DNA of 64,000 nucleotides, taken from assembly GCA_036172245.1 (NCBI GenBank), contig JAYWIR010000007.1, positions 3,472,001-3,536,000 of the forward strand, given 5' to 3'. Origin of the DNA: Raillietiella orientalis (lineage: Eukaryota). How positions within the stretch are numbered: position 1 is the first letter of the stretch; every line of letters begins with the position of its first letter. Both the position numbers and the translations under genes were made by a program. The notes beneath the pieces are model-generated. The model was not told the DNA's origin, did no database searches, and saw nothing but the letters and a program-made list of their open reading frames with translations. Positions 5,391 to 64,000 of the stretch are shown here, one piece after another.

Positions 5391-8315
5391 GTGGGAGGGA
5401 GGCTGGTGGGCCGAAGAGAGAAACGCTCATGCGCACTGAACACGATGAAGAGTTGAGCGAAAAACCGGTGCATGTTCATCTGCATCGGGTCCCCCCCGGC
5501 GAGAATGTGGCAGAGATCCCCCTCGGGGTTCCCTACCAGGAGTGAGAGGAACGCACTCATTCCCCCGGAGCCTTTCTGCTTTCATAGAATGGTCCCTCTG
5601 GGGTACCCCTATAACTTGAAGAGTCACACGCACCCTCGGGTGGCGTGGACAGCGTTAAAGAGCTTCATGAGCTCCATCGCTTCCTCCTTGAGTAGGCGAA
5701 CGGTTCCCCACCACCTGGAGAACCAGAAGGAAAAGAAAAGAAAAAGAAGCTGGGAGGTGAACAGCGAAAACCGAAGAACCCTAAAGGATTTCCATCATCC
5801 AGGGAGATCCAGACGAAAAGCGCGTGCCGGGATCGGCTGCTGCCTCCGATTGACCGATCAGATGCCCAAAGGGTTCGAAGCAAGAGGGCCGTCGCAGAAT
5901 GTGCGTGCCGGCTTCGTGAAGAGCGCGAGTTCCAGGACGGCGAGGTGCGACAGCGGTGTACGGAGACGGGCATGCGGTAGGGAGGCTGGGTTTGGTAAGG
6001 CAATCCAAGTCGAGAGAGAGAGAGAACAAACGGCGTCAAGCTGAAAGGCGAGGAAATCTCACTGAACTTTCCTTGAAGACTCTCAGGATCTTGTAGCCAT
6101 CGGCAGCAGAACTTCCTTCTGCCGTAACCGAGGAAGCACGCGATTTTGCAGAAATGCTCAGCTAGCACAGAAACTGAACTTGAGATTTCAAAATAAAGAG
6201 AAACGGTGAGAGGGATGACTCTACAAGACAAACGGCAGCTCGTCTCAGCAAGCCAGTCAAGATTTCGTTTGTGGACTTGGATAGCTCGCCAGGGGGCATT
6301 CACCTCGAGCTGAAGAGCTTTGCACTTACGAAATCCGTTCCGCGGACACTGTCCGGTGAAACTCCAGTTGAGATCCTTCTTATTTCTTTGAGGAACTTCG
6401 CAGACAAGGAGGGATGACATTAGACGTTCGATGCTGGGTAACTGAGAAAACGGGACAAACATTTTTCGAGTCTGAGGTAGAGCTGGAAGTCATCGCAAGG
6501 ACTACAGGTCATGAGGATGGCTGAGATTTCCACCGTTGCATGTAGCACATGAGAGCGTGCGAGTGGCTGGAATTTCGTCAGGACGATTGCAGCACGTCTA
6601 AACGTCATTGACCGAAGCAGCTTCATAGAAATCTGGAACCGTCCCGCAAGCTTCCAGTATTCCAGGGGAACTTCTCGAGAGAACGGTGACCTACTGAAGC
6701 TCTCCTATCACTCAAGCTTTCCTAAATTAGTGGACAAGTCCAGCATCAGTCCCACAGAGTCGCGCATGTACCAGATCGCCGGCCATCTGCGATAACCGAA
6801 CCAATCTCAGAGGTTAAGAAGTCTCCAGAGTCGGCCGAACGAGTTCAGTTGAGTCCTCCTCACTCGAATTTCCCAAGTAAGCGGAGTGGATATCAGGAAT
6901 TCCTGGAGGAATTTCCATGGTGCGCTTAGATGGGTTGAAATCAGGGTGCGTAACCTCGTCTCGTCCAACAGATGTCAGCTTGAATATCTCAAAACTGCTG
7001 CTACTAGACGACTGTTGGCGTTCTCGAATTTTTGTAGGGGACTCATGGAATTCGAGAAGAACTGCAGAGTAGGATCAGCTGGAACACCTGCACCTGTCGA
7101 GCAATGGTTGAGAAAGCGTTAACTCTTGTCGTTCCTAAGAAAATCAAGGCTGAGGTGAAAGAGCAGTGCTCTAGGAGCCAGAGAAAAAAACTCGCAAGGT
7201 GCTGTGGAACCTCCGCGTCAACGTCTTCACTGCACAACAGTGTAAAGAAGACGCCTGCAAGAAGGCCGGAATCCAGCAGCTAGATTGCTCGAGCCACGAC
7301 TGCCCCAGCTGCCTTTACGTGTAGCCTTAAAAAACAAGAATGTGTCGCTCGCGGGACTTTCGGAACAGAATCTTTGCTATCTGCAAAATGCTAGCATGGA
7401 AATGAGACAGATGACAAGGACTTCTCCAGATAGCCAGCTATTTTCATCAGCTGCTTCGGAGACCTGAGAGACCTAGGACAGTGTCTCCGGATAGAGCACA
7501 CAGCGTTGCCAGCACAAACCAAGCAAGAGAGACCAGAAGTTGCAGCTAATCACTAGAAGAATGCTGGGAGGGGACAGAGGAGTGCATCCAGACGTATGTC
7601 CACCAGAGGGCACCAGCTCATTCATAATCTCCTCATCATTCAGACCACAGGTTCTCAATAGTTGGGCCACTCAGAAAACTTCTGTTACACACAGTGTTCG
7701 GAGCTGAAGATGCGAGTTTTCTCGAAGAGCAAAAACATTGTAAAAAGTGGGAGCAACAAGACCGTTGCTGAGGAAATTTTTGCCGCCCACGAGCAACGCT
7801 TCTTGACTCGAGCCCAGGTGTGCACGGAGAAACTCGCCCACCCACGAGAGGAATAGAACCCGTGCAGTCATCTTGTTCTGGATTCTGAGCAGGAAGATGT
7901 CGGATCTGAACGAGGAACGCCACCTACTGCTTCTCGAGACTCCATCGCTGAGACAACTCCTGAGAAAGACTTCTTTCGTCCTTCCACATCGCACGGCAGC
8001 TCCTGTTCACTTCCTCATCCGAAAGGCGACAGAACGGCGGACCTGACCTTGTGAACCAGTCTTTGTCTGTATGTTGGCTCGAGGCGTGCACAACATGCGA
8101 CAAGGGAGGCAACATCTCGCATTACGAGCCGTTGTGAGGCGACGGAACCACGGGAAGATGAGGCACGGTTTCACGCATGCGTTTGGATGTGAACCACCGT
8201 GACTCCAGCTCCAGGAAAGAGACGCACTGCAAGGGAAGAAGTGCTTGCTTGCTGTCACTTTCTGCGGTATCCCCTTCCTCACTGCTGCCTTCAGGCTCGC
8301 TTCCAGCGCTCTCAT
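3981..8315 (-). mobile_element. Inverted central/3' part of the same L1/Tx1-type element (APE C-terminus, RT, zf-RVT, 3' UTR), pseudogenised
   Basis: Minus-strand fragments in canonical ORF2 order: 'PTFYNVFALRENSHLQLRTL...NDEEIMNEL' (linker), 'SPCDDFQLYL' (YADD-like), 'YKILRVF', 'QQCGGEFLPHLLVDC' (zf-RVT CxxC..H...C remnant), then a T-rich 3' UTR. Many stops and frameshifts. Confidence 0.75.
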
Positions 8316-9725
8316 CTCCGCGGAATCTTCGGATCGCAGCAGAAATTCCGCGAATGCGGATGACTGCGGTTCCGGTGAGCTACCGTTGGACCGTGTTGGC
8401 TTCGCGAGCCATGGTGGCGCGGTGCCAGGATTCTTCCAGGTTGGGGACACCTCCTCTCACTCGGGATGTCCACCTGCAGCGTTTCTTGCGCGCTCCTACC
8501 TCAGGGGTCCCTATCGTGCACGCAGAGTGCAGCTACGTGCAGAGTCCGAATCTGCTAAGCAGCCGATTGCACCGTACGATCCGGAGACCACATCACCGCA
8601 TCGTCCTCGTTTCCTCCCTCCGATGCGCAACGACCACCACCTGCGCTTCGCAGGACCCAACTTGGGTGTCTTCCGCACATCTCTGTCCGACCTGTCGTTC
8701 CTCGAAGATCTCCGTCCTCGATGCGAAGTGGACTACTACTTGGCTGCAGGAGTCAGCTTCCGCATGGAGTAAAATCAACGAAACGAGCGAGGAAGAGTGC
8801 ATCTGCCTACGAAACAGCAGATACGCCCGCCAGTCGTCGAGAAGATCCTGGGTAACACCGGGAATCTGCTTTGAGCGTCGTTCACCCCCCCCTACCCCAG
8901 TGCTGTCCTTCTTACGGGAATCAAGAGACAGCGACCTTCCGGGAAGGTGGGAGGTGACTTGCGCTATAGACAACAAAAGGAAACATCTGGGTACGCGGAC
9001 AACTCGGGAGCTGGAGGACGCTGCCACCCGAGTGTCCCTCCAGAAGGACTGCTACGCCGGGGAGAGCTACCACGAATTCCTCCGGACGAGGTACAGTGGC
9101 TCCCAGCGTGCTGAAACAGCGCAATCCTCCCCCGAAAGTGGCAGGAGTCGGCGATCCTTCTGTTGCATTGCGGTCTCCCGTGCAACGCCCGCCGACACCA
9201 TTGGACCCGGGGGAGGAGGTGAGCCCCAACTGCAGCAGTGCGGAGGAGAGTTCCTCCCTCACCTGCTCGTGGATTGCGTTGCGTTGCCCTCCGCCCCCTG
9301 TGAGAACGCTTTGTCGCGTCTCTGCAGATCCTCGAGGGCAACTCCAGAGACGTCCTGAAGCGCCTCTTCCTGCGCGATGCCCTCGCGCCGGTCGCATCCC
9401 CAGCAGCACTTTGCCGCCCCTGCGGCGGGATCGTGGCTGCATGGAGCAGCGCAAGAGGAGGCCAAAACGATAGGGACGCCGTCTATTCTGCCGTCCTCTT
9501 CGTGATGATATTGTCAAGATATCCCCATCTGGAACTTGCCGGCATCCTTACAAGGATGCGGAGGACGCCCTCCAGCACCCGGTGATCCCTTCCCGAACCC
9601 TCCCAATTTTTGTTTGAACATATTTTTTTTGTTCTATTTTTCCTTTTGTCTATTTCCTCTTCCTCCCTGCTGTCGAGGCGAACCCCGTCGGCCTGCGTCC
9701 GGTTCTCGGCAGGTTCCTTTGTAAC
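8316..9725. repeat. Right arm of the 1,410-bp inverted duplication
   Basis: Reverse complement of 3981-5390. Identity breaks at 3980/9726 and 5391/8315. Confidence 0.97.
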
Positions 9726-24730: not shown

Positions 24731-27533
24731 AACGAGTGCTCCTGCCGCTTTTTCTTCCTTGCTGCCTTTGTTTTCGGTGCCCTGCCTCGCTGCAAAATGG
24801 CAGTTCTCATGGTATGCCGAGACCCATCAATTTTCAGACCAATGCTCCATAGCATCGATCAGGAAATTGCTCGGAATGCATCTGATAAAAACGCAACTGT
24901 GTGGTGATTCGTAGAGATGCAACGAGGTTTCTGGTGGCTTCATGTACATAAATGAAAGTGAACGAATGCACCGGTGCGGTGTGTATACACACATGTGTGT
25001 ATGTGTGTGTGTGCATATCACGTACATCACGTAGCATGAAATATCGTTAAGAGATCAGTGGTGTCGAACGTTGGAATAGTGGGTTTGAACAGGCCGCCAA
25101 GGGGCCACTCAGCAGCTTGCTTGCCTTTTGATTGCCAGAGCGACAGGATTAACCTGATGGGGCTCTTCTGGTTGCGTTAGGCAACAGAAAAAGACGCGGT
25201 TCCCATTTCACGTTTGTCAGATCGGTCGCATGGATCCATGGAGAGTCCATGACGAAAGACGAACCTTTGCGAATGAAGGTTGCTTCTTGCGCGTACGGCA
25301 AGATGTAAACACAGACGCCGCGGACGCATATCTGTGGGTAGAGCTTTTGAGCCGCTCTTCGCAACCTGCTGCCCCACATAATTAGGGAGCCCCCCCTTTG
25401 TTCTTCCCATGTGGTAGTTGAGTTAATGATGGCGCCGCTAAAGGAGAATGTGGGAGGGCTGAATGAGAGCAGGAAACGCACATCGACGCCTCTTGCTCCG
25501 GGGTGTTTTGACATGGACATTCTATTTCAGGCTCTGTTGGATGCATATGACGCCGTCGTAAAAGGAAAGCACTCTTTCGTTCGATCCGCCGGCGCAGCAG
25601 TAGACAGCTTCGACGTCGAAAATATGCCTGAAGAGCGATCACGTGTGATACGCCTACAGAAAAATCCCAACGAAAGCCTGGTGAGGAACACTTTCTTGTG
25701 ATCTGCTCGCAAAGGTGTGCCTGCCCGAGAGCATATCGGGCCTTGATCAGGCTTACAAACTCGAGGTTCTTGCGCTCAGGCTTCCCGACGCGCCTCCTCA
25801 ATCCCCCCGACTAACATGGGACCTTGGGTTTCAGGGAATCACCGTGCAAGTCGAGAATGACCAGCTGACCGTGGCGCGCATCCTGGATGGCGGTCTGGTG
25901 GACAGGTGCAAGATCTTGCGAATCGGGGACAAGATAAAGGAAATCAACCAAGCTCCCGTGCGTTCCGTTGAGGAGATGATCGAGAAGATCAAGGCCTCAG
26001 GCACCGAACTGTTCCTGACCGTGACCACACCCTCCCAGTCCCTCCAGGAGGATACGATCGACAGCCAGGCATCCTCCGTCCAGTCGTCTTGCCCAGTAGT
26101 GAGTCCATCCAGCTCTCGCGCCTGTTCTCTCCCGCCTCGTTGGCTCTCACCTCCCAGGTTTACATGCGCGTCCTGTTTTCTTACGACCCCACCGAGGACT
26201 CGCTGCTGCCTTGCCCCGACATCGGGTTGTCTTTCTCTCAAGGAGACGTCTTGGAAGTCGTCGACAGGAAAGACCCCAACTGGTGGCAGGCCCGCCGCGT
26301 CGGCAGTCGGGGACCAGCCCGTCTCATACCTTCCCAAGAGCTAGAGGAGAGGCGCAAAGCGTTTGTGCCGCCCGAGCACGACTACGTTCACAAGACAGGC
26401 ATGTGCGGCACGAAGGTGAATGGGCGAGGGAAAAATCAGGAAGAAAGGGGAAGATCGAGAATAGGCAGACGCTGATATCCGTGTTATCTTTGCGTCCCCA
26501 GATAAGTAAGAAGAAGGTCAAAAGTATGTACCGGTCAAAGAACAACAGCGATTTCGACAAGGCAGAGCTCATCCTATATGAAGAGGTGGTTCGCAGTCCA
26601 CCCTTCCACCGGAAGACCTTGGTCCTCGTCGGTGCTCCTCGGGTGGGCAGGCGCACACTAAAGCAGCGCCTGCTTTCCTACGATCCGGAACGGTTTGCCA
26701 CCATCTTGCCTCGTAAGTTCCTTGTCGTTGTTGTTGTGTTTGTTCTTTTCCTTCTTTGTTTGTTGTTGTCGCCTCTGCTGCTGCCGCTTCCATTAGTCAA
26801 CTTTGTGTTGTAGGCACGTCTCGTCCTCCTAGGGAGAACGAGCAGAACGGTCAGACATACCACTTCGTCACGCGAGAGAGCATGGAGCACGACATCCATG
26901 CCCACCTGTTCCTTGAATGGGGGGAGCACGGGGACCACCTATATGGACTGCACACGAACGACGTGCACGAGATCATTCGTTCGGGGCGCATGTGCGTTCT
27001 GGACGTGGCACCCGGCGCGTTGAAGGCGTTGCACGGGTCCGCCGACCTGCTGCCATACGTCGTCTTCATCGCTTCGCCCAGCATCGAGCAGTTGCGCTTC
27101 ATGAACGACTACGGCCGCGTCATGGGGCTGGCCTCCAGCCAGCGCACCCTCACGGTACTGTTGACCCGCCGCGCTTCTTCGGGCAGCAACTTTTCCATCC
27201 ATTCCCCCAGCTTGATAGGAGCTTCCGCTACAGTTCTCGCCGCGCGCGCACTCTGCAGTCTCTGGCCTCTTTCTACGAGGTACGTGACCCCGACTGACCC
27301 TACCCCCCTCTTTCCTCTGAGAATCCCTCACCAACTTGCCCAACCACTCTACTCAGGAAGAAGACATCCTTGCCACCATCGAAGAAAGCGCCCGCATTCA
27401 GAGGACATACGAGAAGTACTTCGACTTGGAACTGGTCAACGAGGATTTCGAGATGACCTTCCAGAAGCTGGTCGGCACCATCGAGTCCCTAAGCCAGGAA
27501 TCGACTTGGATCCCGGTTCAGTGGATCTACTGA
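18612..27533 (+). CDS. vari: MAGUK p55 subfamily protein (Varicose/PALS2/MPP6-like): L27-L27-PDZ-SH3-HOOK-GK. Exons 18612-18733, 24245-24403, 25531-25680, 25835-26098, 26158-26415, 26502-26712, 26814-27154, 27211-27279, 27357-27533; 5' start unresolved
   Basis: L27 'HEDLLFLKNVM' and 'ALLDAYDAV', PDZ 'GITVQVENDQLTVARILDGG', SH3 'YMRVLFSYDP...DPNWWQA', GK 'TSRPPRENE...YHFV', Vari-like 'RYSSRRARTLQSLASFYE', C-terminus 'WIPVQWIY*'. All introns are GT-AG and phase-compatible. Confidence 0.93.
18880..22400 (-). mobile_element. Decayed L1/Tx1-type element, antisense inside a vari intron
   Basis: GC-rich block with 'TSLAGRV' (LSLxGR post-RT motif), degenerate RT pieces and a knuckle-like 'CGGMQHSSTCCWHFRH' near 22250. 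Boundaries approximate; may extend to about 23550. Confidence 0.55.
24696..24729 (+). repeat. Poly(A)34 tract in a vari intron
   Basis: Read directly from the sequence. Confidence 0.9.
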
Positions 27534-27764
27534 TTCCATGGCAGTCCGGAGCTTGGGGATGCTCCAGAAACCCTAGCTTGCCCAACTTGTGACCCGGAAC
27601 ACCTCGTTCCCGATGACGCAGGTTTCATGTCCCACCGAACATGCCCACGTGTGTGTTCAGACTTGTGTATACCTCTACTCCGTCCATGTACGAAAGACTG
27701 TGTACAAAGTGCTAATTTATTCGACTACTCACCGGTTCTATTTTTAGACGAGGTGACTTAGGCG

Positions 27765-47120: not shown

Positions 47121-49360
47121 TCATATCTCGGAAGGGCACTTACTGATATACGAGGAATCAAAGAACACAATAGTGATTGTGATGTCATCTCGAAATGCTC
47201 TCACTAAATCTTCTGGAAAGCTTAGGAGTTGTGAAACTCTCGCATTGTCTAGTCCATAATCTGTGGAACTCAAAGCATGACGTATCAGATGTGTTGCTGC
47301 ATTAGCATCAATTGGTTTTTTTTGTAAGGCTTCTTGTCTTTGCACCAAGAGTTGTTCCACTTGTTTCAGCGTCAAAGTTTTCTGAGGTAAGACTAGGGGG
47401 TTGAGAGCTGTTCTGCCACACATGTGTTCTCCAATCAGAGCCACCACTTCTGCAGGTGTGAGAAATTCCCAAAAACCATCTGTTCCCAATATGAGAAATT
47501 TATCTTTGGCAGTTAGTCGATGATAGGTAACTTCAGGTTGTGCACTCAGATAAGGAGGTGTGTGGTAATGTGGTGGTATGATGCTTGGACTGCACATTGG
47601 CACGAACAATTTATTTTGCAAATTCACATTCCACTTATATCGGAAATCACCAAAGGCTCTCAGAGGACTCAACTGACCAAGTAATCTTCCATCATGAATG
47701 ATTGTATGACTTTCTGATGCAGGATGTTCATGAAACAGGCGATGCATTTCTTTGGCATTTTCGTGATTATGCTCATTGGTTAATTTTTTTGCCACCCAGT
47801 GATTCGCATCAGTTTCCTGGCCAAGCACAGCTTGGCAATCACCCACATTACCTACATGCAAGTGGGTACCATCAATGTGTGCTACACAACCAACACAACC
47901 AGACAAGGCCACAGCCATGGGAATCATCTGATTTGCTGCTTCTCTAGAGAGGTCATCATCCAATCTCAGAAATGCCTTCTCAAATGCATCCTGAGTGCTT
48001 ACATTGCTGAACTTTGTTCTTAATTCTTTTAAATATGCATGAAAACTTTTTTTGTAAAGGTTTTCCAGATGTTTATCAGTGTTGTCCATGACATAAGATG
48101 TGTACACTTCCAATAGATTCAATTCTTCTACTGAATTGACTTGATCAATTTTTCGAATGCATTCATCCAAAGCATCTTTGCAAAGCAGTGAGGCAGCAAC
48201 ATAGTGCATCAACCTTTTGGTAACCACTTCAACACAATTATTTCCACCATGCCCATCAAAAACTCCAAAAAGCAAACCTGCAATAAACCATAATCACCGA
48301 ATCCCACAACAGATAGAACCTACTAAACAAGATCAAAGCTCGGTTTGCTACTATTCTTTAACTACAACTTTGAAATTCATTCATGCTGAGGGAGATAGTC
48401 ATTTTTTTCAAGAATCCTGCTGAACTTGATTGTTCTTCAGTTTGTTTTGCAATGCACGTGTGTTAAGAGAACTAGAAAACTCACATGCACCACATGAAAT
48501 GAAATGCAAAAGTACATCTGATGCATAAAGTATTAGGTTAGATTCTAGAAATGCATGGAAGCTCATTTTTCGCGGTGGTGATATCATCACTACAGAGCAA
48601 TCAACCTGTAATACCTTTGCAATTGCACGAAAAAGCCAATCAATTGCAGAGATTCCGTCAAGAATACGAGGAACCTGCTCGAAAATATCATTTTGTGAAG
48701 GAAGGTCGAAATACAGAAAAACAAAAAGTTACGTGCGACTGTGCAAATCTTGAAACGGAATTCTGCACTCTCAGGGAGTGCATGTTTTCATCACGCTCAC
48801 TGACCAATGATGATTCTGCACATCATTCATCGGAAAAAGGAATGGACATTTCGAAATCAAATCAGAATACACAAAGTGGTGGTTGTGTGCCACTCGATTC
48901 GTGCACTGTGACGGTGCCCCGACTACTAGGAATTGTCATTGCACTTCATGCAGGAAGAAACGCGATGGAGGGAACCAACGAAATACGTTCTGTACCATTT
49001 GTGGCTCGTTCAAGGAAAACAAAATGCACATACACACCTGAACACACACGAGAAAACCTCCTTACCGGTGGTATACCGACAACGGGATTCTACATGTCGA
49101 TCTTCTGGGGGAATGTTGGATGGAAGGAGGTTGCTTTCGAATGATTTCACCGACTCGCAATATAAATCTTTGCTGAATTCATTGGCTGCCAGTATGTCTG
49201 TCACCTGGGAAAAGGCTCCGCTTACTGCACATGCTTGGAAGGATCACGGACAGTAAGAAACCCGATCGGGGCATACCTGACCAGGGGACAGCCTTGGTGT
49301 TGGGAATGCACGTCTGCACAAACACCTCGCACTGCCAAAGCTCATTCGAAGCCTCGCCAT
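47121..49360 (-). CDS. Pdp: Mitochondrial pyruvate dehydrogenase phosphatase catalytic subunit (PP2C family). Exons 49360-49277, 49204-49066, 48277-47121
   Basis: Arg-rich leader 'MARLRMSFGSARCLCRRAFPTPRLSPGQ', 'ILAANE...SFESNLLPSNIPPEDR', 'FGVFDGHGG', 'GRLLGQLSPLRAFGDFRYKW', 'TPPYL', 'LILGTDGFWE', 'FRDDITI'. Start codon inferred. Confidence 0.95.
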
Positions 49361-50749: not shown

Positions 50750-52740
50750 GGGGGATCCCATCTCCCACGCTGGTTGTCTCCGAAGGGGAAGCCCGAAGGG
50801 AATCTCCTTCCTCATTCTCACCGGAAGGACACCCCCCGGGAGGGAGATGCTCCTCTCCATTTCATCTTCTCCGAAGGGCATCCAGAAAGGATCCGCTAGT
50901 AGGAATTTCTTCTTCGGAGGGAACTCGCAAGGGAACCGCTCGCTTCCCGGCAGACATATCCGTGTCCCTGCCCCCCCAATGCCTGTTCCCACCTCCTTCC
51001 GACATTCAACCATCCGCTCGTGCGGCATCAGTTGCTACACCCGGTAGGAAATCACATCTCTGATCCCGTCGGCGTCTCAGGAAGACTTGCGCGCCAACAA
51101 CAGTAACAGTAAAGGAGGTAGCATATCTTCCGCTAAACGATCCTCGCGTTCAGCTGCAACCCAGCATCCTGCGGTCACAGTTAGCATTGCACCGTGGATC
51201 CTCCTCCCTCTCCTGGGTGTGATTCTAAGGCAAAGTGAGTTGGCACGCAGAATGGGTGAGCTCTTGGGTACACTCTTGGGTGAGCCCGCAGATTCTGTGC
51301 TTGTATCCGTTGCTAAGATACCGATGAGCCAGCGGGGCTGATGCTCACTCGGTATTGTGCCATTCCGACGGGATGTACTCGCTTTCTTTGAATCAGCAGA
51401 CCTTGGGGGAGAGCGACGTAAAAGAGTGGAAGATCTTTGCACCCACCCCGAACGCTTAGCCTTCCGGACGCGGAATGCGTGCTCCAACAGCTGGAAAATG
51501 TGCAGAGTGTCGAAGGCGCGCCCAGCCACCGTTGAACTTTCAGCGGAACTTTTTTTTTGTTACTCTCTTGCGCTGCCGCGCAAATGCGCGCGCTAATTTT
51601 GCTTGTTCTAATGTGCAATGTGCTGCCCACACAGATCTCCATCACCGTGGACGACGTTCTCAAGGAGAGCATGAGCACACCGAGGGACCGTTTACCGTGT
51701 TGTTGTCCCGCAGAATCTCCGTCGGCGGCAGGGAGCACACGACAGCATTGCCCGGAGTCCGAGAGGTGGATAACCTGTAAGGGTGAATGAAAAACGTGAG
51801 CACCCTCTGAGGGTGCACGTTTGCTGCCGTTGGCCAAACAAAGAACTCTCTTTCGATAAACAGTACACCCTTCTCTGATCCTCTGCTCGAGTCGGTCCCT
51901 CGAGATCCCTTTTAGCCGTAAAGAATGAAAAAAAATTGGACATGAAAATTACTAGTCCGCTCGTAGCGTTTTTCCCGCGTTTCCAAGAAGTAGGGAGAGC
52001 AGCTGCTTCGTGGACGCGGACAAAACATCCTGCTACTCGACGTTGAGTCTAAGGGCTCCCGTTTCCGTGGGAGCGTTACCACCTTACACATTCATAGAGT
52101 TCGAGGTCCTTCGGGTTCTCTAAAGAGAACCCCGAAGGGACGCTTCTGAAATTCAGGAGTGCTGCTTTCCGCAGGGTGATCGCTCTCGCTTCCTTCCTTG
52201 CACTCTCTGGATAGGTGACGATGCAACTGCTTCCATCAGAACGACTCCAAAGGGTTCCTCCCGCAAAGAGGGGGTCCGCTCTTTTAACAACTGGAGAGGC
52301 GCCCGTGGAGGCTCCATCTTGAACGTACCGGAGGGGTCCCCCCCCCGTGGGATGGGTCCGCTCTCCGTTGTACGACCGGAGGGGGAACTCTCCACTGCTT
52401 GATTCCTGGAAGGACCCGAAGGTCGTCTCCCATTGTTCCGGCCTTCATCGAGGGCCATCGGTTTTAACCGCTAACGGTGTCACGCCAGAATGTTTCGGCC
52501 AACCAGAGCCATTGCATGAGAAACTCGGAACCCAACGACGCAACGGCCTCAGCTTCTGCCGAAGTATTCGAACCCGCGACGCGTGGTGCCAAAAGTCGCG
52601 GAAGTCTTGACCACAAAGCCTCCGACACGGGCAATTGCGCAGAGAGATTCGCGCTTGGGAGAAACCAACGCAATGATCTGCAGGATGAGCATCAACTTTG
52701 GAGCGCTCACCCTTCGAGTTGGAAATCTGGCTGACCCAGC
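50750..52740 (-). mobile_element. Decayed L1/Tx1-type RT fragment
   Basis: 'AGRAFDTLHIFQLLEHAF...GWVQ' (D.EKAFD.V.H..L...W motif) in a GC-rich block. Boundaries approximate. Confidence 0.6.
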
Positions 52741-53101
52741 AGAGGTTATTTTATAAGAATCGAACCACACTCATCGTGCGGAAAGAGTGCCCTAAAAAGG
52801 CGAGAAGGAACGATAGGATGAAAGAAAGCTGCTCAATTCTGTGACTGTTTCAGGGAACAGAAAGCAATTCAAGACTAGAAAAAAATGGTTTAAAGGGCAC
52901 AAGAGTTTAGGTGCATCACAAGGACCGTGCACTCTGCCGGGTATACGAGGCATCGTCCAACATTATACACTGATCACTGCAAAACGAAGTTGTCGATATG
53001 TGTGTTTCTTCGTGATGCACCACAAAAGTGAAATGATGGATATGAAGTCCGGCGCACTCTGAATAGGTAAACTCGAACGTTTAGCGTCTCACTACAGTGT
53101 C

Positions 53102-56100
53102 TCAGACGCGAACGCTGTCTTCTACGAGCGCTTCCACGCTCATCTTCTTTAATATCATGTTATTAGCCGCTCCCTCGATCGTTTCGAAATCAACATTTGG
53201 GAAGGTTTTCCAGAATCCTGTCTTCTGGGACCACAACCGATTCTGCGGGCTTCTGATACCGTGCAGAATTCTCGCCACGTCGAATCCCGACCACGTTTTG
53301 TCCTCCATGTGCCTGTCAAGGAATTGCTTCACAGCAAGTTCAAGTTCCTTTTCGACCTGAAAAACGCATTGAGAATCGGACTTCTTCTCCGTCCGCTTGC
53401 AAACCTCGGGTTCATTTGCCCCGACGTCTCGAAGAACCGCGGCTCGAACATCTTGCTCGACGTACTGAGACGACAGGGCTTCCAAGTGGATGGCCGATGT
53501 CCTGAGGAACAGAAGTCGGTTTGCCAAGATCACCAGTCTCCGAACTCACTTGGAGCACGCCGCAAGGAAAAAGGATAGCAAGTGAAATCTCAGACCCAAC
53601 AGGTGCATCGCCGAGGCGTAAACGTCATCCAGCAGCGTATCCAATTCGCTTCCCCCCATCTGCTCTTCCACGTGCACGCAGAAGCTCCAGTCGGAGAAAC
53701 GTACGTTAATGCGGTGCTGCTTTGACAATTTCCACAGGAGGTCACGAACCACGAACGGCTCGAACCCCATCACGTCGGCAACGCTTGCAACGCTGATGGA
53801 CGCCTGCCTCCGGATCCTTTTATTCAAACGGAGAGTCCCACTCAGGAAAGAACTCTGGGTCATCGCTTTAGTGTCCGCACGAACCACGAGGCCACTTACC
53901 TTCTCCAGAATATCTCGGATATTTTTCGTCCCTGAGTAATCTGTCAGTATGCACGTGGCGTATGACCACCGCTGCAACGACACTTTTGAGATCGGGTGCT
54001 GTGACAACAGCAGCAGTAACATTTCTATTGTTTCCTGGTTCAAATCCAACTTCTGCTGCAGCTCGCTGGCGGACAACGTTTTGTAATAACCCTTTGATCC
54101 TGAGGTTGTAGAACGTTTGGGAGGCGAGAACACCGCCTCCAGCAATTTGCGAATCATGAGACGGGTAGTCCTGTGTGCGTTAATCTCCCTCTTCAGTTCG
54201 AAGACAGCATCATCCTGCAAACTTTCACTAAAAGCCTGGCAACTGATCTCATCTACCTGATCGGCGCACAACACGCAACACTCTGCTTGGCACTCCTTCG
54301 TATCGAGCATCGATATATGGGACACGAAACTATCGAATCCCAAAGGCATATCGTAAAACACCAGGTACCTCACCCCGTAGTAGCACAGACCAACAGTGAA
54401 AGAGACACTTGCTACAAGGATGTGAATCTGCCCTAAAATTGCTCCAAGGATGCCGAAGCGCCTGCGGAAATGCAACCAAGGTTACCCTTCTGTAATCTGT
54501 CCTCCACCTGCCGGCGGTGATCCGACGACGATTGCTCATGGTACGTTTCCAGAATGGGCTTCTTCATCGACGCGTTGCAGCCCTGGAAGCAACGACAGCG
54601 TCGGCTCAAGTCAACAAAACTCGACTCGCACCTCCAGAAAAAAGTGGATCACAAGTGCCACTCGCTTACAGCTCTGGGACTGCGAACAGCAAATCAGCAT
54701 GGGAAAAGAGACATTCTTTTGGATCAATTCAGTCAGTTTCTGAAATGGGAACCACTTCCAGGTGGTTTACTTCTCCGAAGCAACTTACTTTTTCTTTCTC
54801 GGAAGTACGCACGGCATTCACCACGAGGCTGTTGTACTCTTCCTGATATTTCACCGTGGCAACATGCGAATCGGCATCGCCAGCGGCAATGCTCTTCCGA
54901 ATTTCGGCAGCCCCCGACGACGTCACGCAGGCGCACAGCGCTAAGATCGGCACGCCCAAGGATTGCCGAACGAACTAGCGATGCAAATCATTAACAAGAC
55001 ACATAGCGTACGTTCTGTCATGAACATGAATTCAGAGTTTAGAAATGACAGCCTCTTTCACACGTTCGATTCGCGGCACATTTCATAAAGTGTGCCCCTA
55101 TTCTCTTCCAAAGAGGAGGATTGATATCGACGGGTGTGATATCGATGAATGATTTTCGAAGCCTACTTATTTAAGGAGTCTGCGAAGAAATTTCCAGGCG
55201 TACAGATTATCGTTATTTTCTTTGATTTTATTCGCTGTAAATCGATGAACTTATCTCGTTACACAACCACATGCAAAAACCGAAATCTAGGGAAAGGAAA
55301 TCGCCATTTCTCCAGCAAATATGGGTGAATTCACCCTTATTTGCTTTGCGCGGAAGCAAGCATGCAAGACTCCTGCAGTTGACCAGAGGCAACTGCGAGG
55401 CTCTTTGCAAAAGGGCCTCCCAGTTGTGTTTTTGAAGGAACCCTTTCGACCGAATGGAATCGGGTAGAAACATGCACTCCTTTCTTCCTAGTGATTACCT
55501 GCACAAAATGCCAGTGGATCGGATGGAAATTGAGAGAAGACATGGTCAAACACTGAGCTTCGGGAACGCACACGAAGGCTATTTTCTGACCAATCTCCAG
55601 CAAATTGTTCACTTGGTGCAAAAAGGTCTTTGGAGTAATGTAGAGGATGGACGCACATCCTTTCTTGAGCATTTTTAGCATTCTATGTTGCTCACTCCAT
55701 GTCATTTCTTCATGGAGGAATATGCCCTTTAGGAAGTTGGGTAATTCCCTCACCTAGAACGCATGGAAGTGATTTGGCAGGTGAAAATTTCAACTTACCT
55801 CTTTTTCCATTTTGGAAATCAAGGAAGTGACAACAACAGTCAAGGCCTTGCATTTCTGGTAAAAAAGATGCGCACATGCTTGATAACACAATTGCTGACT
55901 CCGAACACAATTATTGATCAAAAGTGTACTGGAACCACTCAGAATTCGATAAAGTACTTGTTCATGATGTGGACGAACACCAACACCAGAAGCTAGTTCC
56001 ATCATGGATAATGAACAATCAGCTGAAATGATTACAAATTTCAAGTTAGACACACAAGTCAGTCTGGTCCATTGCTGCACAAATTCAATACGGGGTTAAG

Positions 56101-58788
56101 GGCACAAGTGTTCACATGCACCAAAAATAATTTATCTATTTGCAAACCGGCACCGTTCAATTATGAGCCTGCAAACTTTCTGGTCCATAAAGTTTTCCTG
56201 ATATTGGATTGATGCATTGGCATTTCGATTGCATGGAATATTTGTTTCTGACTGGTATAAATAGAATGATCAAATTACTCGAATTTGTGAGAAAGGAAAA
56301 TGTGCCAGAGACATCCTGTGCATGTTTACTCAGAGATGAATATCTTTTTCTTCAATGAAAGAAAATGGCTGTTATGCACATCAAACCAAGTCATGTACGA
56401 GCATTGTTTAACGGACCCAAAGAGACTGGAATCTACAAATAATCCTACATGTTTCCACTATCAGTTTTCATATTGCAGTTTTTAATCATAATTCAATGAT
56501 GTTTAGATTCCACTAAAGTCTATAGGGCAGAACCAAGGCTCAATGCATCCTATGACTTTTGTTAGGACTGTGACATTCACATCGGAAACATTCGATTCCA
56601 AAATGTCATCTTTAATAATGATAAAGGCGCACGAGTAATGTGCATTTTCTTTGCAATAGTCGTTAACAATCTTCGAGACGCTTCAATCCGGTAGTTGATT
56701 TTACTGACTCATCAAACAAAGCATGCCACACGCACCACTGTTGAAATTCTTTATCATACTGAAAACCACTTGCAGGAAAATTTTTGCTGCCTTTAATTAG
56801 AACAACTTTCATTCAGCTAATAAACGAACACCCATGTATACTTATGGCTATCATTTAGGGTTTCATTTATCCATCTTAAAGTAACAGTCCACATCAAAAA
56901 TTCGTTAATCGGAACGTATTTCAAAACTTTCACAATACTCAAAAATAATTTCAATTCCTTTTACTTGTAACTTTAAAAGATTCAACATTACCTTCCTCAT
57001 TGATCTGTTCCTTGGAAAAATAAAATGGAAGTTTGGCATCTCCAAAGTCCTAAGAAAAAGAAGAAAACCATACATGAGGAGCATCCCATTCAAATCTTGA
57101 TGGCAGTAAACAGCAGTGCTAAAAATTATGAGTATGATATAATGCTCCATGCACACATATTTCCGAGTTTATTATGCAATAAGTGTACAGTGCAATAGTA
57201 AACATAAATAGGGATACTAATTGCATTCCAAAATGGGTGCTGTGTATGATAATGAATTTATGTTGTACAAAAATCAAAATAAAAACACAGTCAATACAGC
57301 ACAACTTTAGACAAAGAAATTATCCACACACATCCACAAGGATACATACAAGTTTTAATAGGTATTCATCAACTTGTTTCTTGGATGTTCTCCCTGTTTC
57401 TAAGCCATCTAATGCTTCCATGAGATCAAGGCCAGTTTTATAGGAATCAACGTTTCCTGATGAAACTCCATCTACAAAACGGAACTTAACACAAAAGCAT
57501 GAAGGTTTCCATCTCAACAATTACATCACAACAAAAGACATCATATCACAATCAGCATGTTATGGTAAATAGATTCAGATAATCTTTCTGCTTACATTTA
57601 TGATGCTGTAATATATACATAACGATATCAAAAGGATGCACAACTTTCTTCAGTGAAATGATTAAACAGTATTAATTTGGAAAATGAATGATCAGTTGCT
57701 TTTCATTGAATTACAAACAGTCAGAAAATATTTAATCTGTGGCAATAAGTTTGGCATTCTGAAATCACTGGCCAACATACTGCTGTTCTGACTGGTTGGT
57801 TTACAAAAAAATCCAAAAATTATTTTGATCCAAAACTTTTGAGTAGGTTATCTGCTAAGCAAAACATTCACAATGCTATCTGTACTTACTATTGGATTAT
57901 CTAATAAAAACATAGGTACAGTTCACAGTGAACGCTTCTTTTAAAATACATAGTATTGCTTAAATTACATGCAATTTACTGTAAACACTGTTCTTTATGA
58001 ACTCATATAAAGGTTACAATCAACAATTACATACTTGACACTTTTAGTTTATCTTTCTCTTGTAGTTTTCTCATTTTATATTTCCATTTTTCTCGCATAA
58101 ATTTTTTATGTTTATTTGATTCATGTTTGACAAACGTTTCCTTCCTTAAATTCAGTTTACAAAAGTTGGGCTTCTTCCACAGTTTAGTAGTTTTTCTCTT
58201 ATTCATTGACTTTGAAACAAGAGACTCTGGAAGTGCCTTTGAATCCATGGCATTTAATGTAGAGTTCAGCTCAGGATTTCCTTCTGCATGCAATAAATCC
58301 GTGTGTTTTATCAAGTCCGAATATTTCTTGCTTTTGATAGAAATGGCAAAAACATTTTCTGCTAAGTCCTTTGACTCCTTTGTTGACATATGACTAATTA
58401 CACTAACAGGTAATAAATCTTTTTTTTCTGTACTAATAGATGTCGTTTTACATTCAAAAGGATGCATATTAAAATGAAAGACTTCGTCAAAACTAATTTT
58501 TCGCTTTTTACACCATCTACTATCAGTTTCTTCATTTACATAATCAATTTTATACTGAGGAAACTTTTCCATTTCATCTGGGTTTATCCCATTAACAGCA
58601 GATTGTTCCACATAAGAATTAGGTTCTAATGGTCTCTCTTTAATTGTCACCAGTTTTAATTTAGAAAATAAATCAGCATTGGACAGAGAACTTGAGGGGA
58701 TGGTCTTATGCTTTCGACTCCTTTTAGGCATGCCGAGTTCAGCACCCCAAATTCTGCATTTTGTTGAACTTTCCTCTTCTTCAATCAT
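53102..58788 (-). CDS. RecQ4: RecQ4/RECQL4-like protein with degenerate helicase motifs (multi-exon; the start and exons in 56100-58000 are tentative)
   Basis: RecQ4-specific blocks 'WGAEL', 'NFCKLNLRK..FV...KFMREKWK', 'LYRILSGSSTLL...LCYQ', 'QKLDLNQETIEMLL', 'DVARILHGIRSP...FW...DFE'. Helicase-region exons (56022-55799, 55753-55499 and downstream) are GT-AG and in phase. Confidence 0.85.
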
Positions 58789-61449
58789 TATTTGTTTGTG
58801 TTATATGATTTCCATTATTTCCAATATACTTGTTCAGATGCTACTTTTATCCCTTGTTGTATGTTGCCTATCTGTATCCAACAAATGTCTCAGTGAATTC
58901 CAGGGATTTCTGTTCGGACTATCACTCTTCCTTTCTACAAAAGATCATATTTTTTGTTAATGCAATTTGGCAGAAAATAAAGACTGTGCAAAGGTTTTAT
59001 TATCTCTTTGGAGATCCTCTTTTGTTTGTAATTTTGAAATGTTGAAAGACCCCATTAAATTATCAATTTTTTTTATGGTTGCAAAGCATTCTCGGCAATG
59101 ACAATAGACAATCTCATTATTAATTATTGAAAAAAATACAACGATCGGAATGAAAAAAATAAACAACCACAGATTGGAGATGCAAAGACAGTTTCATATT
59201 GAAAAGAGGCAATTTATTAATGTGGAATCCTAAGTGCCTGACCAAGCAAGGATCATAAAATGTCTAATTGTGCCACATTAATTTGGAATAATACTAGTGC
59301 AGTACAAGTTCTCATGTAATTCATAGGAAATTTACAAGTATTTTAGTTTGACAACAAAGTCCAAATTCTGCAAATAGAAAGGAATGTGTACCCTTTTCAA
59401 TCCCTACAACTTGAAGAATGAAAAAACACTGATTTGCGAAATTGTTTTCCAAAAGCGTTCACATACAGAATCCGGCAGCACTCATGATGTGCAGGATCTG
59501 GCAATTTAACATTATGCATGCATGAAAACTGCTGTGGATATACAGGAATCAGAACAAACAATTTAAACCAAAATAACAGAAGAAGCCTTGTAAACCTGAT
59601 CACTCAAAGTTCCAAAAATTACGTAAAGTAAAATTCAGAGGGAAAAAATTTTGGAGAAATTATGTAAGATAAAATTGAATTGGGTTGGAAAGCATTCATG
59701 TACATATAGGGTTGAACTGCTGCTTTTACATTTGCAAGACATGCTTAACAAAGCCGTTTGTACAACACTCACTCAATAAAGAACGTTAAAGTTACATATG
59801 CAGGTATAAGTTAATTTTCAAAAATAGTTGATATAACAGTCTAAACTACTGATGAAATAAGCCGTGTACATCTTGCAAAACAATCCACTTCATAGTATTT
59901 GATTAAAACTTTTCCTATAGTGGTTTTTCAGTAAAGAGACCAAAGATCGAGGTTTAATTCAATTAAAGAAATGAGCAAAATATTACTATTGCTGAAAGTG
60001 AATAGGGAATTTGGTAAAAAAATGAATAAATTCAAAAATGATTTATTAATCATAATTAATGGACAATGCATCGTAAGCAACAAGTAGTTTTCGGGAACAC
60101 TGATCATCCCTGAAAACTTCAAGAAAATAAACATCTGTTGATAATGTACAAAACCACTAACGTTTAGAATAAGGCTATCCGGTTTGTTGTACACAGGACC
60201 TCACAGAGCAATGAAATATTGAATCACCCGCCCAAGCAGTGTTGCACCCTAAGGTTTTATACTCATGACCATTCGACGCGAGGTTTTCGGATTCCATTGG
60301 ATTCGGCAAGTTAGCCATTCCTACATTCCCTCATATTAAGGTTGACATTCCTTTTGCATGCATGTTCTTTTTCGTTGTTGCACACTCGATGATACATCTT
60401 GGGCCCATTTCTTATCATAAGGCCAAGTGATATACTCGACGTACTATGAAGCTCCGTACTTTAATGGTCTTAAAATTCGATACTTTGATGTTTTTATGTA
60501 TATGCTCTTTTAAATGCGCTAGCTTTTAATGAGTAGCACTTTTTAATAAGAGAAACATACGTCAGCAAAGAAAATAATGAAGAGAACTACTAATTAATCA
60601 TGTAAGTTGGATCCTGATTATTTAAAGGAGAAATACTAATTAAAAAGAATTAACATTGCAAGGTTAAGGAGATACGTCATTTGAGTTGGCTTAAGAAATC
60701 GTGAAGGCACAGATGTGACAACTGGCTGAGACTGACCAGTTTACTTCGCATTAATCACGTCAGCCTGAAGAACGAATATGCCAACTCGAAATGTATTGCA
60801 GCACATCACAAAAACCAAAACGGTTAGGAAAATAAAAACTGCATTCTCCCAAAGCATTTTTGAAGTATGAATGAAAATTAATCATTTTGGAAATATTCCA
60901 ATTCTATGATTACTTTAGCGAAAACATTTTGTTTCTTTAACAACTGAAAATAAAAAGAAACTCTATCATTTGAGACAGGATTGAAGACTTATTAATCTTA
61001 TTATTCCAGCATTTCAAATGAGGCATGAGTTTCAGTTTAGACCAGATAGGAACCTAGTAAGATGTGTCATCTTCGTCTAATAACACACGTTTGTATACTA
61101 ACTAATACAGAAAAAATATTGAATATTTTGGAGAAATTGTGAGCTTTTTCTTGTTGTTAGTTAACTAAAGAATCATTAGTTAAGTGTGATTTCCCGTTTT
61201 CTTTATTTATCATGCCGATAACATGCAAAAAGAAAACCACAGTTTCCTTAACAGCACTGTAATCTATTGAGAACCCCTTCACAACTCGCCTTGCCAAGAA
61301 TGCTACTATACAATTTGCTAAGATACAAAGTTTGTACATTCAAAACCCTTTGAAATCTTGCCTAGGTCCGACAAGTGAATTTATTTAACAACCATATTTT
61401 ACATTGCAACCATTACGAACAAAACACGATTCACTCCCAGTTTTTGCTT

Positions 61450-63000
61450 ATGGCAACACTTGAGGCATTTCGCCTTTCGCGGATGGTCTTTCGTCTTTAT
61501 CCTTACATTGCGAAGGAAGGAAGACAGAGTTGTACATCTGGTCGGAGATCCTCCCCCAACTGCAACTTCCTATTTTCTGATGTGGTCGACAGGAAGGAGG
61601 CCATCGAAGATTACAGGACTTTCTTTTTTTTTTGCCTGGGAGAAGTCCACCGTCTGTTTCCAGCAGATTTTCCATCACCTGTGTTGCTTTCCGACTCGAC
61701 AAAATCTGTCGATTCTCCCTTTTCCTGCTTCATTAAACAAATAGCCCTTGTTACTTTCCTCACCAGAGGCGGACTTGTTTGCACTGCTTCGATGATTGTG
61801 GCTCTCGCCTCTTTCACTGCTCTTTGCGTTTCATGGCGCTGCTTTTCGTCTGCTTTTGTGTAGTGGATCCCCGCGTGGAGGGTGTAGGTAGGCAACAGAA
61901 TTTGTTCCTCCTGTTTCCCGGCGATGTACGGACGAATCACGTCCTCAAATTCAGCGTTTACACGCTGCTTGTCTTCCTCAGTCAATACTTGCGCTGCGCT
62001 CGAACTCCGCGATCTTTTGCTTGCATTCCTCGATGGCGCGGCTTTCTGCCTCCGCTACTGGAGGAGATGGAAGTCATCCACAGCCAACTGCTTTCTTCCC
62101 TCTTGGGGCTTCTTCTTCTGCTGCTGCTTGTCTAGGAGGCTTGTGTCGCTGACTGTGGAGGGAAGGGGGAGCTCCGCTTGTTGCTCCGCCTGCCTCCTGT
62201 TCGACTCCACTTCGGGAAGCGGAGGCAGTCCTCGGGTCACGAGCAATCCTTCTTCACGTAGCCCGAATTTTGCAGTAGTAACACTGCGAGAGTCTGGAGC
62301 AATCCTTGATAAAATGGCCGATTTAGCCGCAATTAGAGCATCGCGCCTTGGGGCAGGAGCCCACGCGGTGGCCGAACTCCTGGCAGCCCGTGCAAAAAGT
62401 GGGCTGCAGGCAGTACCGCATCTGCACATCCTGGGAGTGCTCGTCGGAGGCGGCGACGACTTCCGGGGTCCTCTCGTCAGGGAACAACTTCATTTACACC
62501 ATGGCCTCCCCGGAAAAGATCTCTTCGATGTGGTTGCGGAATGCAACCTTCTTAACTTCACCGTATTGAGAGGAAAAACTCCCACACGTCTTCCTAGTTG
62601 GTATCGCAGTGTATAACGGTCCGGTAAAGAGGGGCCGTTGACAGTTCCACGAGGAACTCCAGCGGCTCCTCGTTCCTAGTATACACGGCAAGTTCTCTCG
62701 CTCATGGAACGATGGCTTTGATTTTCTGGAAATCAACGTCCTCTTTATGGAATGCCACGTAGACGTCTCACATGTTGACGAGTCGCAGCAATCCCGTTCG
62801 GAACGTGATTTGTTTGGCTTCCTCTTCAACTTCCTCCACGGTTTTCTTCACTTGTTCAACTTCAAAGGTGGTGGCTCTCGTCGGCCTCGCCATTGTCACC
62901 GCCGCCGTGTTCCGTGTTGTTGGCTGCGAAACTTCCACGGCCACGTAAGACAGCGGCGGCTGCGTCGTCGTCATTGCCAGCGGTAGCGCGTCACCTCCCT
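61450..63000 (-). pseudogene. Gag-like retroelement ORF1 with three CCHC zinc knuckles, disrupted; no ORF2 follows
   Basis: 'SQYGEVKKV...IFSGEAMV*MKL', 'CTGCQEFGHRVGSC', 'CSNCG*IGHFIKDC', 'CYYCK-(frameshift)-GYVKKDC'. AATAAA on the minus strand at about 61380. Confidence 0.8.
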
Positions 63001-63279
63001 GAAGGTGCCGGGCTGGCATACCTTTATTGGCTTGGGGATCGCCATACAGCGTACGGTCCCTGAGAGAGAGGGAGCTTGCATCTTCAAGTCCTCCACACTT
63101 GAAACTGTCCGGGGACAGTCCAAGGTTCTGGAGAGCGAGGGCAGTGTTCACGGGCGAGGAATGTTCACTCCACACACTCGGAAAAACTGCTCTTCGAACC
63201 TTTTGGCCGGAGTCCGCGCGAACGCAGTCTCCCAGCCTAAAAATTATGCTTCTGAGTAACCCACGTGTGGGGTTGTCGC

Positions 63280-64000
63280 AGAGGTTTCTCATCCGGATTT
63301 GCCGGTGCATTTATTATAAAAAATTATAATAAAAGTCATGATGCTTACAGAATCGTGGTAGAACACTTGGTAATATCACGGGCGAAGGACTTGCCAAAAA
63401 CCGGTACTCAGACCGGTGAGGTCCACTCCAGAGGCAAAGGAGGAGGGAAAACCAAATAAAAAGACAAAAAAAGGGGGGGAGGAGTTTTTCGGGGAAAGGG
63501 GACGGGGAAGGGATCATTGTTCTTCTGGAGACGTCCTCTGCATCCTGCTCACGATGCTGACAAGTTCTGTATTCTTTGGTTTCAGTTGATACCATCGGGA
63601 AGCGGTCTTCAAGAAGATTTCCGTCCAATGGATGGCATCCCTGATACTGTGGCCTCTTCTTCTGGCGTTCCAGATACCCACAATTCCACACATCAGAGAA
63701 TTGCTAGAGATGCGGCTGGCGGCAGGGCGTCATGCATGAAGAGGCTCTGGAAAATGTACTTAGGGTCGCCTACCGGGATTTCAAGGATTTACGAGAGTCG
63801 ATCCCAAAGGTCTCAGAGGCCGACAGTATATTGGCAAGTGCGGGGAGGTCTCCTTCTCTCCGCAACTTTCGCAATTGGCATCCACATTCTCAAGTGTTCA
63901 ATGCATGGGATTTCTCAATGCAACAATTGCAGCGCCACCTCTTGCCACTTCAGAGGGAGGGTGCCAACACGCTGGAAGCCACTTCACCTCCTCCGGAGGT
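63280..64000 (-). mobile_element. 3' end of L1/Tx1-type element (zf-RVT and 3' UTR); runs off the window
   Basis: 'NCESCGE..TSPHLPIYC' zf-RVT. 3' UTR GAACTTGTCAGCATC...GGATGCAGAGGACG...TGATCCCTTCCC matches 9531-9594. Confidence 0.8.

Follow-up and report, generated by a model that had tools for sequence, protein, structure and literature searches.

Can a gene of the RecQ4 type lose all of its catalytic motifs and still be maintained by selection? This question is raised by a 64,000-nucleotide (nt) stretch of the genome of Raillietiella orientalis (assembly GCA_036172245.1, contig JAYWIR010000007.1, positions 3,472,001 to 3,536,000 of the forward strand), which is referred to here as the window and in which position 1 is the first letter. 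The minus strand of positions 53102-56022 consists of seven exons (E2 to E8) of a RecQ4-type gene, a span identical to that marked in a first-pass annotation of the same sequence, and an eighth exon (E1) lies upstream. We conclude that the gene is real, spliced, and derived from RecQ4 (RECQL4). Judging from its sequence, the encoded protein is unable to bind or hydrolyze ATP and hence to unwind DNA. The reading that we favor, with a probability of about 0.55, is that of a selected, catalytically dead RecQ4 derivative, i.e., a natural pseudohelicase whose reading frame is kept open by selection and whose fold is probably kept.

A spliced gene derived from RecQ4

RecQ4-like peptides were present in the minus-strand stop-to-stop open reading frames (ORFs) of 53102-58800. 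When a profile built from 20 RecQ4 proteins was run against the window ORFs, E2, E3, and E7 matched it in order and on one strand, and the superfamily 2 (SF2) core with its two RecA-like lobes was collinear with that of RecQ4. The likeness is not due to chance because the profile E values of E1, E2, E3, E7, and E8 ranged from 2.7e-5 to 2.4e-33. No second RecQ4-like stretch was found in the window by tblastn and profile searches.

The exons are described here in the order of transcription, all on the minus strand. E1 (58800-58035; 5' limit set by the ORF limit, first Met codon at 58788) was located by the profile (E value, 2.7e-5; profile positions 291 to 487) and by tblastn. It carries, in order, the landmarks RIWGAEL (58755-58735), DSRWCKK (58524-58504), and NFCKLNLRKETFVK...KWK (58167-58126), which fit the middle region of RecQ4 (VWGxxLN, DxxWLxR, and NFVRxNLKKK...WK). 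E2 (56022-55799; E value, 2.2e-13) contains a degenerate Q motif, a degenerate Walker A motif, and the start of motif Ia, and E3 (55753-55499; E value, 1.2e-16) contains the remaining part of RecA1 with a Walker B remnant (VPEAQ) and NFHPIH in place of NFRPSY. The next three exons had profile E values of 2.2, 1.4, and 0.64 on their own and were placed by collinear alignment, with additional tblastn support for the third: E4 (54974-54789) has a motif III remnant (LCACV), E5 (54739-54632) covers the motif IV region with MLICCSQS for IIVYCTRR, and E6 (54582-54486) has YHEQ for YHAG. The largest exon is E7 (54432-53550; 883 nt; E value, 2.4e-33), with remnants of motifs V and VI followed by the RecQ4 zinc-binding/winged-helix domain. 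Finally, E8 (53501-53102; E value, 2.1e-11; profile positions 1252 to 1319) encodes the RecQ4 C-terminal block and ends in a stop codon at 53102-53104. The block itself, ARILHGIRSP..LW..FW..NVDF (ARILHGIRSP...FWKTFPNVDF), is retained at 53275-53186, and residues beside the catalytic motifs are also kept (LCYQ, AFxC, NFxP, and YH). The alignment thus bears out the earlier statement that flanking residues and the RecQ4-specific C-terminal block persist.

The seven introns (2012, 45, 524, 49, 49, 53, and 48 nt) are all of the GT-AG type with matching phases, and five of them are short (45 to 53 nt). Exon boundaries were tested by script; the joined eight-exon frame has 972 codons and a single stop at its end. 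The first-pass annotation described open, correctly phased exons. Their phases do match, but the exons are open only once spliced because the frame shifts at E4/E5, E5/E6, and E6/E7 and because intron 7 (53549-53502; GTGAGT...CTCAG; 48 nt) contains an in-frame TGA. The in-frame joining of E1 to E2 across the 2012-nt AT-rich intron 1 (58034-56023; 34% G+C; GTATGT...TTTCAG) is one that we infer from matching phase only. Profile and pattern searches of intron 1 found neither a RecQ4-like exon nor a CCHC knuckle. Accordingly, the further exons that had been presumed to lie unresolved in 56100-58000 appear not to exist; E1 joins E2 in frame, omitting the zinc knuckle and its linker. We dismissed a candidate 34-nt intron within E7 (GTAAGT near 53908), which is too short and does not keep the frame.

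Two side observations concern the structure of the gene. The G+C content of third codon positions (GC3) rises along 53102-58800 from 0.28 in E1 and 0.31 in E2 to 0.56 to 0.78 in E3 to E8; intron G+C content climbs in parallel from 0.34 to about 0.52, and the switch falls near 55.8 kb, where long introns give way to very short ones. Read-through past the E3 donor (55498-55470, minus strand) would encode VITRKKGV, which tblastn aligned to the homologue segment ILTQKLGV, the same segment to which the start of E4 (VRQSLGV) corresponds. Either this alignment is due to chance or the segment is left over from an exon boundary that has since shifted.

An exhaustive HMMER search with E7 over 1.84 billion representatives yielded 61 proteins at an E value of ≤0.001. 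Two of these reached ≤1e-10, none reached ≤1e-30, and identity was 31% for the best match. The named top matches were annotated as "ATP-dependent DNA helicase Q4" (Limulus polyphemus, Nymphon striatum, Phyllotreta striolata, and Coccinella septempunctata), and further matches came from echinoderms, insects, and Capsaspora. Among sequences in the PDB, the best match of E7 was human RECQL4 (5LST; E value, 1.8e-5). Other searches returned little: Pfam on six exon ORFs gave only subthreshold chance matches (ExsE and PCI), with no DEAD or Helicase_C match at an E value of ≤1; a word-based homologue search with E7 for longer proteins gave none at ≤0.001; the ESM Atlas gave generic Helicase_C clusters only; a metagenome scan for related loci gave 112 pattern matches, none of which was confirmed; and Rfam had no match over the whole window.

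We also modeled E7 with AlphaFold2, given an alignment of 30 homologues. The mean predicted local distance difference test (pLDDT) score was 76.4, and 125 of 295 residues scored at least 90; the low-confidence parts were a truncated RecA2 piece and two loops. A Foldseek search with this model had a sole match at an E value of ≤0.001, human RecQL4 (5LST; E value, 1.4e-12; template modeling [TM] score, 0.54 over the query). E7 thus models as a RecQ4-specific fold (i.e., R4ZBD/winged helix).

Replaced motifs and divergence of the gene

All of the motif strings quoted in the first-pass annotation were recovered by the alignment, at the minus-strand positions given here. In the first RecA-like lobe, the Q motif FRPGQE reads VRPHHE (55978-55961); Walker A, STGSGKS in homologues (S/PTGxGKS), reads NNCVRSQQ with Gln in the Lys column (55915-55892); Walker B, IDEAH, reads VPEAQ with Asp changed to Pro and His to Gln (55567-55553). 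Further downstream, LTATA of motif III is replaced by LCACV (54938-54924) and YHAG by YHEQ (54543-54532). Motif V reads VASVSFTVG for VATVAFGMG, the Gly being lost (54415-54389), and motif VI reads FVSHISMLDTKE for YVQExGRAGRDG, both Arg residues being lost (SMLDTKE; 54328-54293).

The rest of the protein has diverged as well. Identity was calculated over the core and C terminus against 18 RecQ4s (P0056 was left out, as it lacks part of the core). The values were 23 to 28% (median, 26%), compared with 34 to 63% (median, 51%) among the 18 themselves. Of the 95 invariant columns, 41 were kept and 54 were lost, in contrast to 86 to 100% kept when each homologue was left out in turn. In a maximum-likelihood tree, the end branch of the gene had 10 changes per column versus a median of 0.65 (Capsaspora, 4.06), and its position was not resolved because the branch is saturated.

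To place this divergence, the neighboring gene provides a reference. A single-exon ORF of the PP2C family (47121-48293, minus strand; 390 amino acids [aa]), 5 kb from the RecQ4-like gene, encodes a pyruvate dehydrogenase phosphatase (PDP). It was 49 to 53% identical to insect PDPs (49 to 52% for a set of 13 insects, whose median among themselves is 64%) and kept 92 of 107 insect-invariant columns; all named entries among the 120 best matches listed were insects. Its N terminus lies in another exon because homologues have about 470 to 510 aa. The matches mark the host as arthropod-like, probably pancrustacean, and from a lineage that the protein collections lack. Given that the PDP gene is ordinary, it is the RecQ4 gene specifically that has accelerated.

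Selection, drift, or redundancy

If the gene were simply decaying, its open frame should have been broken. We substituted the coding sequence of E2 to E8 at random in 2,000 simulated copies per distance. Stop-free copies made up 17.6% at 0.02 substitutions per site and 1.65% at 0.05, and there were none among 2,000 at 0.1, 0.2, or 0.37. Neutral loss of 54 of the 95 invariant residues (57%) needs about 0.37 substitutions per site, a distance at which about 20 stops are expected. The probability that all 28 splice-site bases would survive was 0.06 at a distance of 0.1, and the codon-position composition of E7 is still structured (G+C contents of 0.50, 0.38, and 0.64 at positions 1, 2, and 3, respectively). 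Prolonged neutral decay is therefore incompatible with the open frame, the splice sites, and the codon structure. No hallmark of a pseudogene (premature stops, frameshifts, lost splice sites, or absence of introns) was found in the 972-codon, seven-intron model, and a classical pseudogene is ruled out.

Evidence that the fold itself is still under selection is mixed. Hydrophobic invariant residues were kept preferentially (24 of 37, versus 17 of 58 for the others; Fisher P = 0.0013). In columns conserved at 80 to 99%, the majority residue was present in 49%, close to the 52% of Capsaspora RecQ4, whereas in invariant columns the values were 43% and 87%, a pattern of targeted loss. In-frame indels (9 deletions and 9 insertions) were no more numerous than in Capsaspora RecQ4 (11 and 11). 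The 115 replacements at conserved columns had a mean BLOSUM62 score of -0.23, which exceeded both a composition null (-1.32; 0 of 5,000 reached the observed value) and a single-nucleotide-neighbor null (-0.56; P = 0.009).

A single public sequencing run (here X1), guessed to be DNA, provided additional sequences from the locus (8% of sampled words; uncovered bins are uninformative). Twelve of its contigs fell on the locus, and details were available for eight pieces from seven contigs. Three listed contigs were identical to the window (53050-53138, 58157-58307, and 58415-58565), one within intron 1 had 3 differences in 170 letters, and three over E7/E8 differed at 5 of 186, 5 of 149, and 15 of 96 letters (84 to 97% alike). 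One of the last three, with a depth of 3, joined 53501 to 53551 with one changed letter, so that exactly the predicted 48-nt intron 7 was gone. A spliced transcript must therefore once have existed, as RNA or as a retrocopied or intronless DNA form. If X1 holds RNA, the intronless contig is a spliced transcript; if it is DNA, there is an intronless, somewhat diverged 3' copy, which could be a retrocopy, allele, or paralogue. X1 contigs also departed from the window at 54783, inside intron 4 and five bases from the E4 boundary, and several more departed at about 56919-57030 with depths of up to 7. These departures point to a repeat in intron 1 and, near intron 4, to a structural difference or second copy.

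Several results weigh against a selected, functional protein. The retention drop was similar in every conservation class (12, 25, 49, and 43% across four classes, versus 29, 58, 93, and 100% in Limulus), the pattern expected of uniform relaxation, and at strictly invariant columns the replacements were not significantly conservative relative to the single-step null (P = 0.115). Eight of the nine listed X1 exonic differences, including the junction letter, were nonsynonymous (most differences were unlisted) and show no sign of purifying selection. The AlphaFold2 signal for E7 was borrowed from the active homologues in the alignment. Features other than the catalytic motifs are missing too. In the RecQ4 zinc-binding domain, the homologue sequence PCxC...CxGHEV has become SPPKRSTTSGSKGYY (54127-54083), with loss of the C-x-C...C-x-G-H cluster, which we take to be the zinc ligands of R4ZBD. 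Between E1 and E2 there was no counterpart of the CCHC zinc knuckle or of the PTLEEA linker, which together take up about 150 residues in homologues, and the 255 aa of E1 contained no Ser-Pro or Thr-Pro site, whereas five homologues have 4 to 11 within their first 600 residues. The joint loss of the knuckle, the R4ZBD ligands, and the N-terminal-half Ser/Thr-Pro sites looks, from the sequence, like general erosion. No credible minus-strand match to the Sld2-like first exon (region I, about 55 aa, LKxWExxF...RKP) was found in 58800-64000 with full-length and N-terminal profiles and a pattern; the exon may lie beyond 64000, be unrecognizably diverged, or be absent. The domain that carries the helicase-independent function in other animals is thus unconfirmed here. 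Lastly, neither AATAAA nor ATTAAA occurred within 800 nt 3' of the stop.

How far these points tell depends on the alternatives. It is very improbable that the protein is still an enzyme, with ATP binding and hydrolysis provided by noncanonical residues, RNA editing, or alternative exons; we found no point in support, and GK(S/T) of Walker A, Asp and His of DExH, and both Arg residues of motif VI have been replaced at once. Alternative exons restoring Walker A or DEAH, which would have overturned the first-pass annotation, were sought by tblastn and profile, and there was no alternative RecQ4-like exon in 52000-64000 or elsewhere in the window. Moreover, the library homologues among the 61 E7 matches that cover motifs V and VI keep both, the exceptions being two with GRSGR for GRAGR and one departing from the strict motif V; four short fragments lack the region. 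A stronger rival, but still improbable, is that this is a redundant paralogue or a recently silenced gene, with an intact RecQ4 elsewhere. Such a copy would be changing rapidly toward a new role, with selection relaxed or positive, or would lately have fallen out of use without a disabling mutation as yet. It would explain the extremely long branch, the N terminus not found in 58800-64000, and the missing polyadenylation hexamer; the diverged X1 contigs over E7/E8, one without intron 7, suggest that at least the 3' part may be present in several copies, and the fly genetics cited in PMC6636780 and PMC3926958 make it unlikely that a dead RecQ4 would be the only one. Yet the window holds no second RecQ4-like stretch, the open frame excludes a long-dead copy, and the diverged X1 contigs resemble the dead gene rather than an intact RecQ4. 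Identity was at most 37% among the 61 library matches, so that none can be assigned to this organism as an intact copy, but the library may lack one.

It is less probable again that the N-terminal part alone is needed and that the helicase and C-terminal exons drift at the amino acid level. In that case, stops, frameshifts, and splice losses would be purged because they cause truncation, destabilization, or nonsense-mediated decay of an essential mRNA, and the dead body would have no function of its own. The similar-factor drop in retention across conservation classes, the nonsynonymous X1 differences, the saturated branch, and the loss of the zinc site along with every catalytic motif all fit such drift. 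So do the reports that an N-terminal 480-aa RecQ4 fragment supports replication in mouse cells (10.1101/2025.07.21.666025, a preprint) and that evolution has removed or split off the helicase domain on several occasions (PMC3926958). The preferential retention of hydrophobic invariants, the replacements more conservative than both nulls, the in-frame indels no commoner than in Capsaspora, and the confident RecQ4 fold model of E7 argue otherwise. In addition, lineages that do not need the helicase part simply deleted it, and the Sld2-like exon that this explanation requires was not found in 58800-64000. The first-pass annotation had proposed selection for a nonenzymatic protein, and this proposal survives in part. 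Complete motif loss within an intact multiexon frame, the exclusion of neutral decay, hydrophobic-biased retention, conservative replacements, and the E7 fold favor it, but the mostly nonsynonymous X1 differences and the uniform drop in retention speak against a strongly constrained scaffold.

If a selected, catalytically dead RecQ4 derivative is the correct reading, the protein would work without catalysis. The retained parts, i.e., the basic NFxKLNLRK...KWK region, the N-terminal landmarks, an inert two-lobed RecA-like body, a winged-helix/R4ZBD-like domain, and the C-terminal block, would most likely carry helicase-independent RecQ4 functions. A likely role would be to bind chromatin or DNA, or to bind partners when replication is initiated. 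We propose only tentatively that an arthropod lineage has no RecQ4 but this one, lives without RecQ4 helicase activity, and keeps the whole inert body because it serves structurally in replication initiation or genome maintenance. Such a case would be unexpected because a helicase-dead K898N transgene is reported not to rescue RecQ4 nulls in Drosophila (Capp et al. 2009, as cited in PMC6636780 and PMC3926958).

The surroundings of the gene contained other features. Tandem CCHC gag-type knuckles occur at 62280-62460 on the minus strand (patterns at 62394 and 62340) in GC-rich sequence with an in-frame stop; they belong to a gag-like retroelement remnant upstream of the RecQ4-like gene (62000-62500, with a probable extent of 61600-62500) and are not its zinc knuckle. 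A knuckle-like match at 62340-62299, within these tandem knuckles, was rejected for its wrong order and in-frame stop. Two Sld2-like candidates, AEAESRAIEECKQKIAEFER (about 62070-61990; E value, 12) and KCWNNKINK (about 61000; E value, 7), were likewise rejected as chance matches or parts of the gag-like element. Farther away, exons of a MAGUK p55-type gene lie on the plus strand at 25685-27592 (PDZ E value, 2.6e-8; guanylate kinase E value, 2.4e-27; an SH3-like stretch between them). A perfect inverted repeat (100% complementary) has arms of 1417 nt at 3981-5397 and 8309-9725, 2911 nt apart; its sequence is GC-rich, with long ORFs without a Pfam match, and it may represent either a very young foldback-type element or an artifact of assembly.

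Comparison with known RecQ4 systems

The in vivo need for RecQ4 helicase activity is disputed, the activity being described as essential in flies and dispensable in mice (PMC6636780; PMC3926958; 10.1101/2025.07.21.666025). Recql4 K525A mice are reported to be normal, and truncations that remove the helicase and C-terminal parts to be deleterious and null-like (PMC6636780). If the favored reading is true, the gene would be an evolutionary separation-of-function allele, showing which surfaces are still under selection, and a pointer to the nonenzymatic role of a domain mutated in Rothmund-Thomson-type syndromes. If it is the sole RecQ4, nature would have produced an equivalent of the helicase-dead mouse, in contradiction to what flies are reported to require; should there be an intact paralogue, the gene would be a helicase turned pseudoenzyme after duplication. 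A narrow literature search turned up no published account of an animal RecQ4 that is naturally dead.

Like animal RecQ4/RECQL4, the protein has collinear N-terminal landmarks, both RecA-like lobes, a zinc-binding/winged-helix domain, and the C-terminal block. Human RECQL4 is described as having a zinc knuckle at residues 397 to 421 and the R4ZBD at 836 to 1044 (PMC8637615). The gene product differs from animal RecQ4 in that the ATPase/helicase motifs and the zinc cluster are replaced, the zinc knuckle and linker are missing, the Sld2-like exon was not located, and the core is 26% identical. A second comparison is with lineages in which Gaggioli et al. infer that the helicase domain was separated or lost independently several times, i.e., fungi, nematodes, placozoans, and euglenozoans (PMC3926958). 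The Sld2/SLD-2 proteins of fungi and nematodes are likewise a replication-initiation part free of a RecQ4 helicase (PMC3926958). Those lineages removed the helicase domain; here, Sld2 region I was not found in the window, and the inactive body is retained, open, and spliced. A third comparison is with the Recql4 K525A allele (PMC6636780), also a full-length RecQ4 protein that does not use ATP and keeps its domains, which for the present gene is predicted from sequence. K525A, however, is an engineered single substitution, whereas here natural evolution has changed all of the motifs and 54 of the 95 invariant residues.

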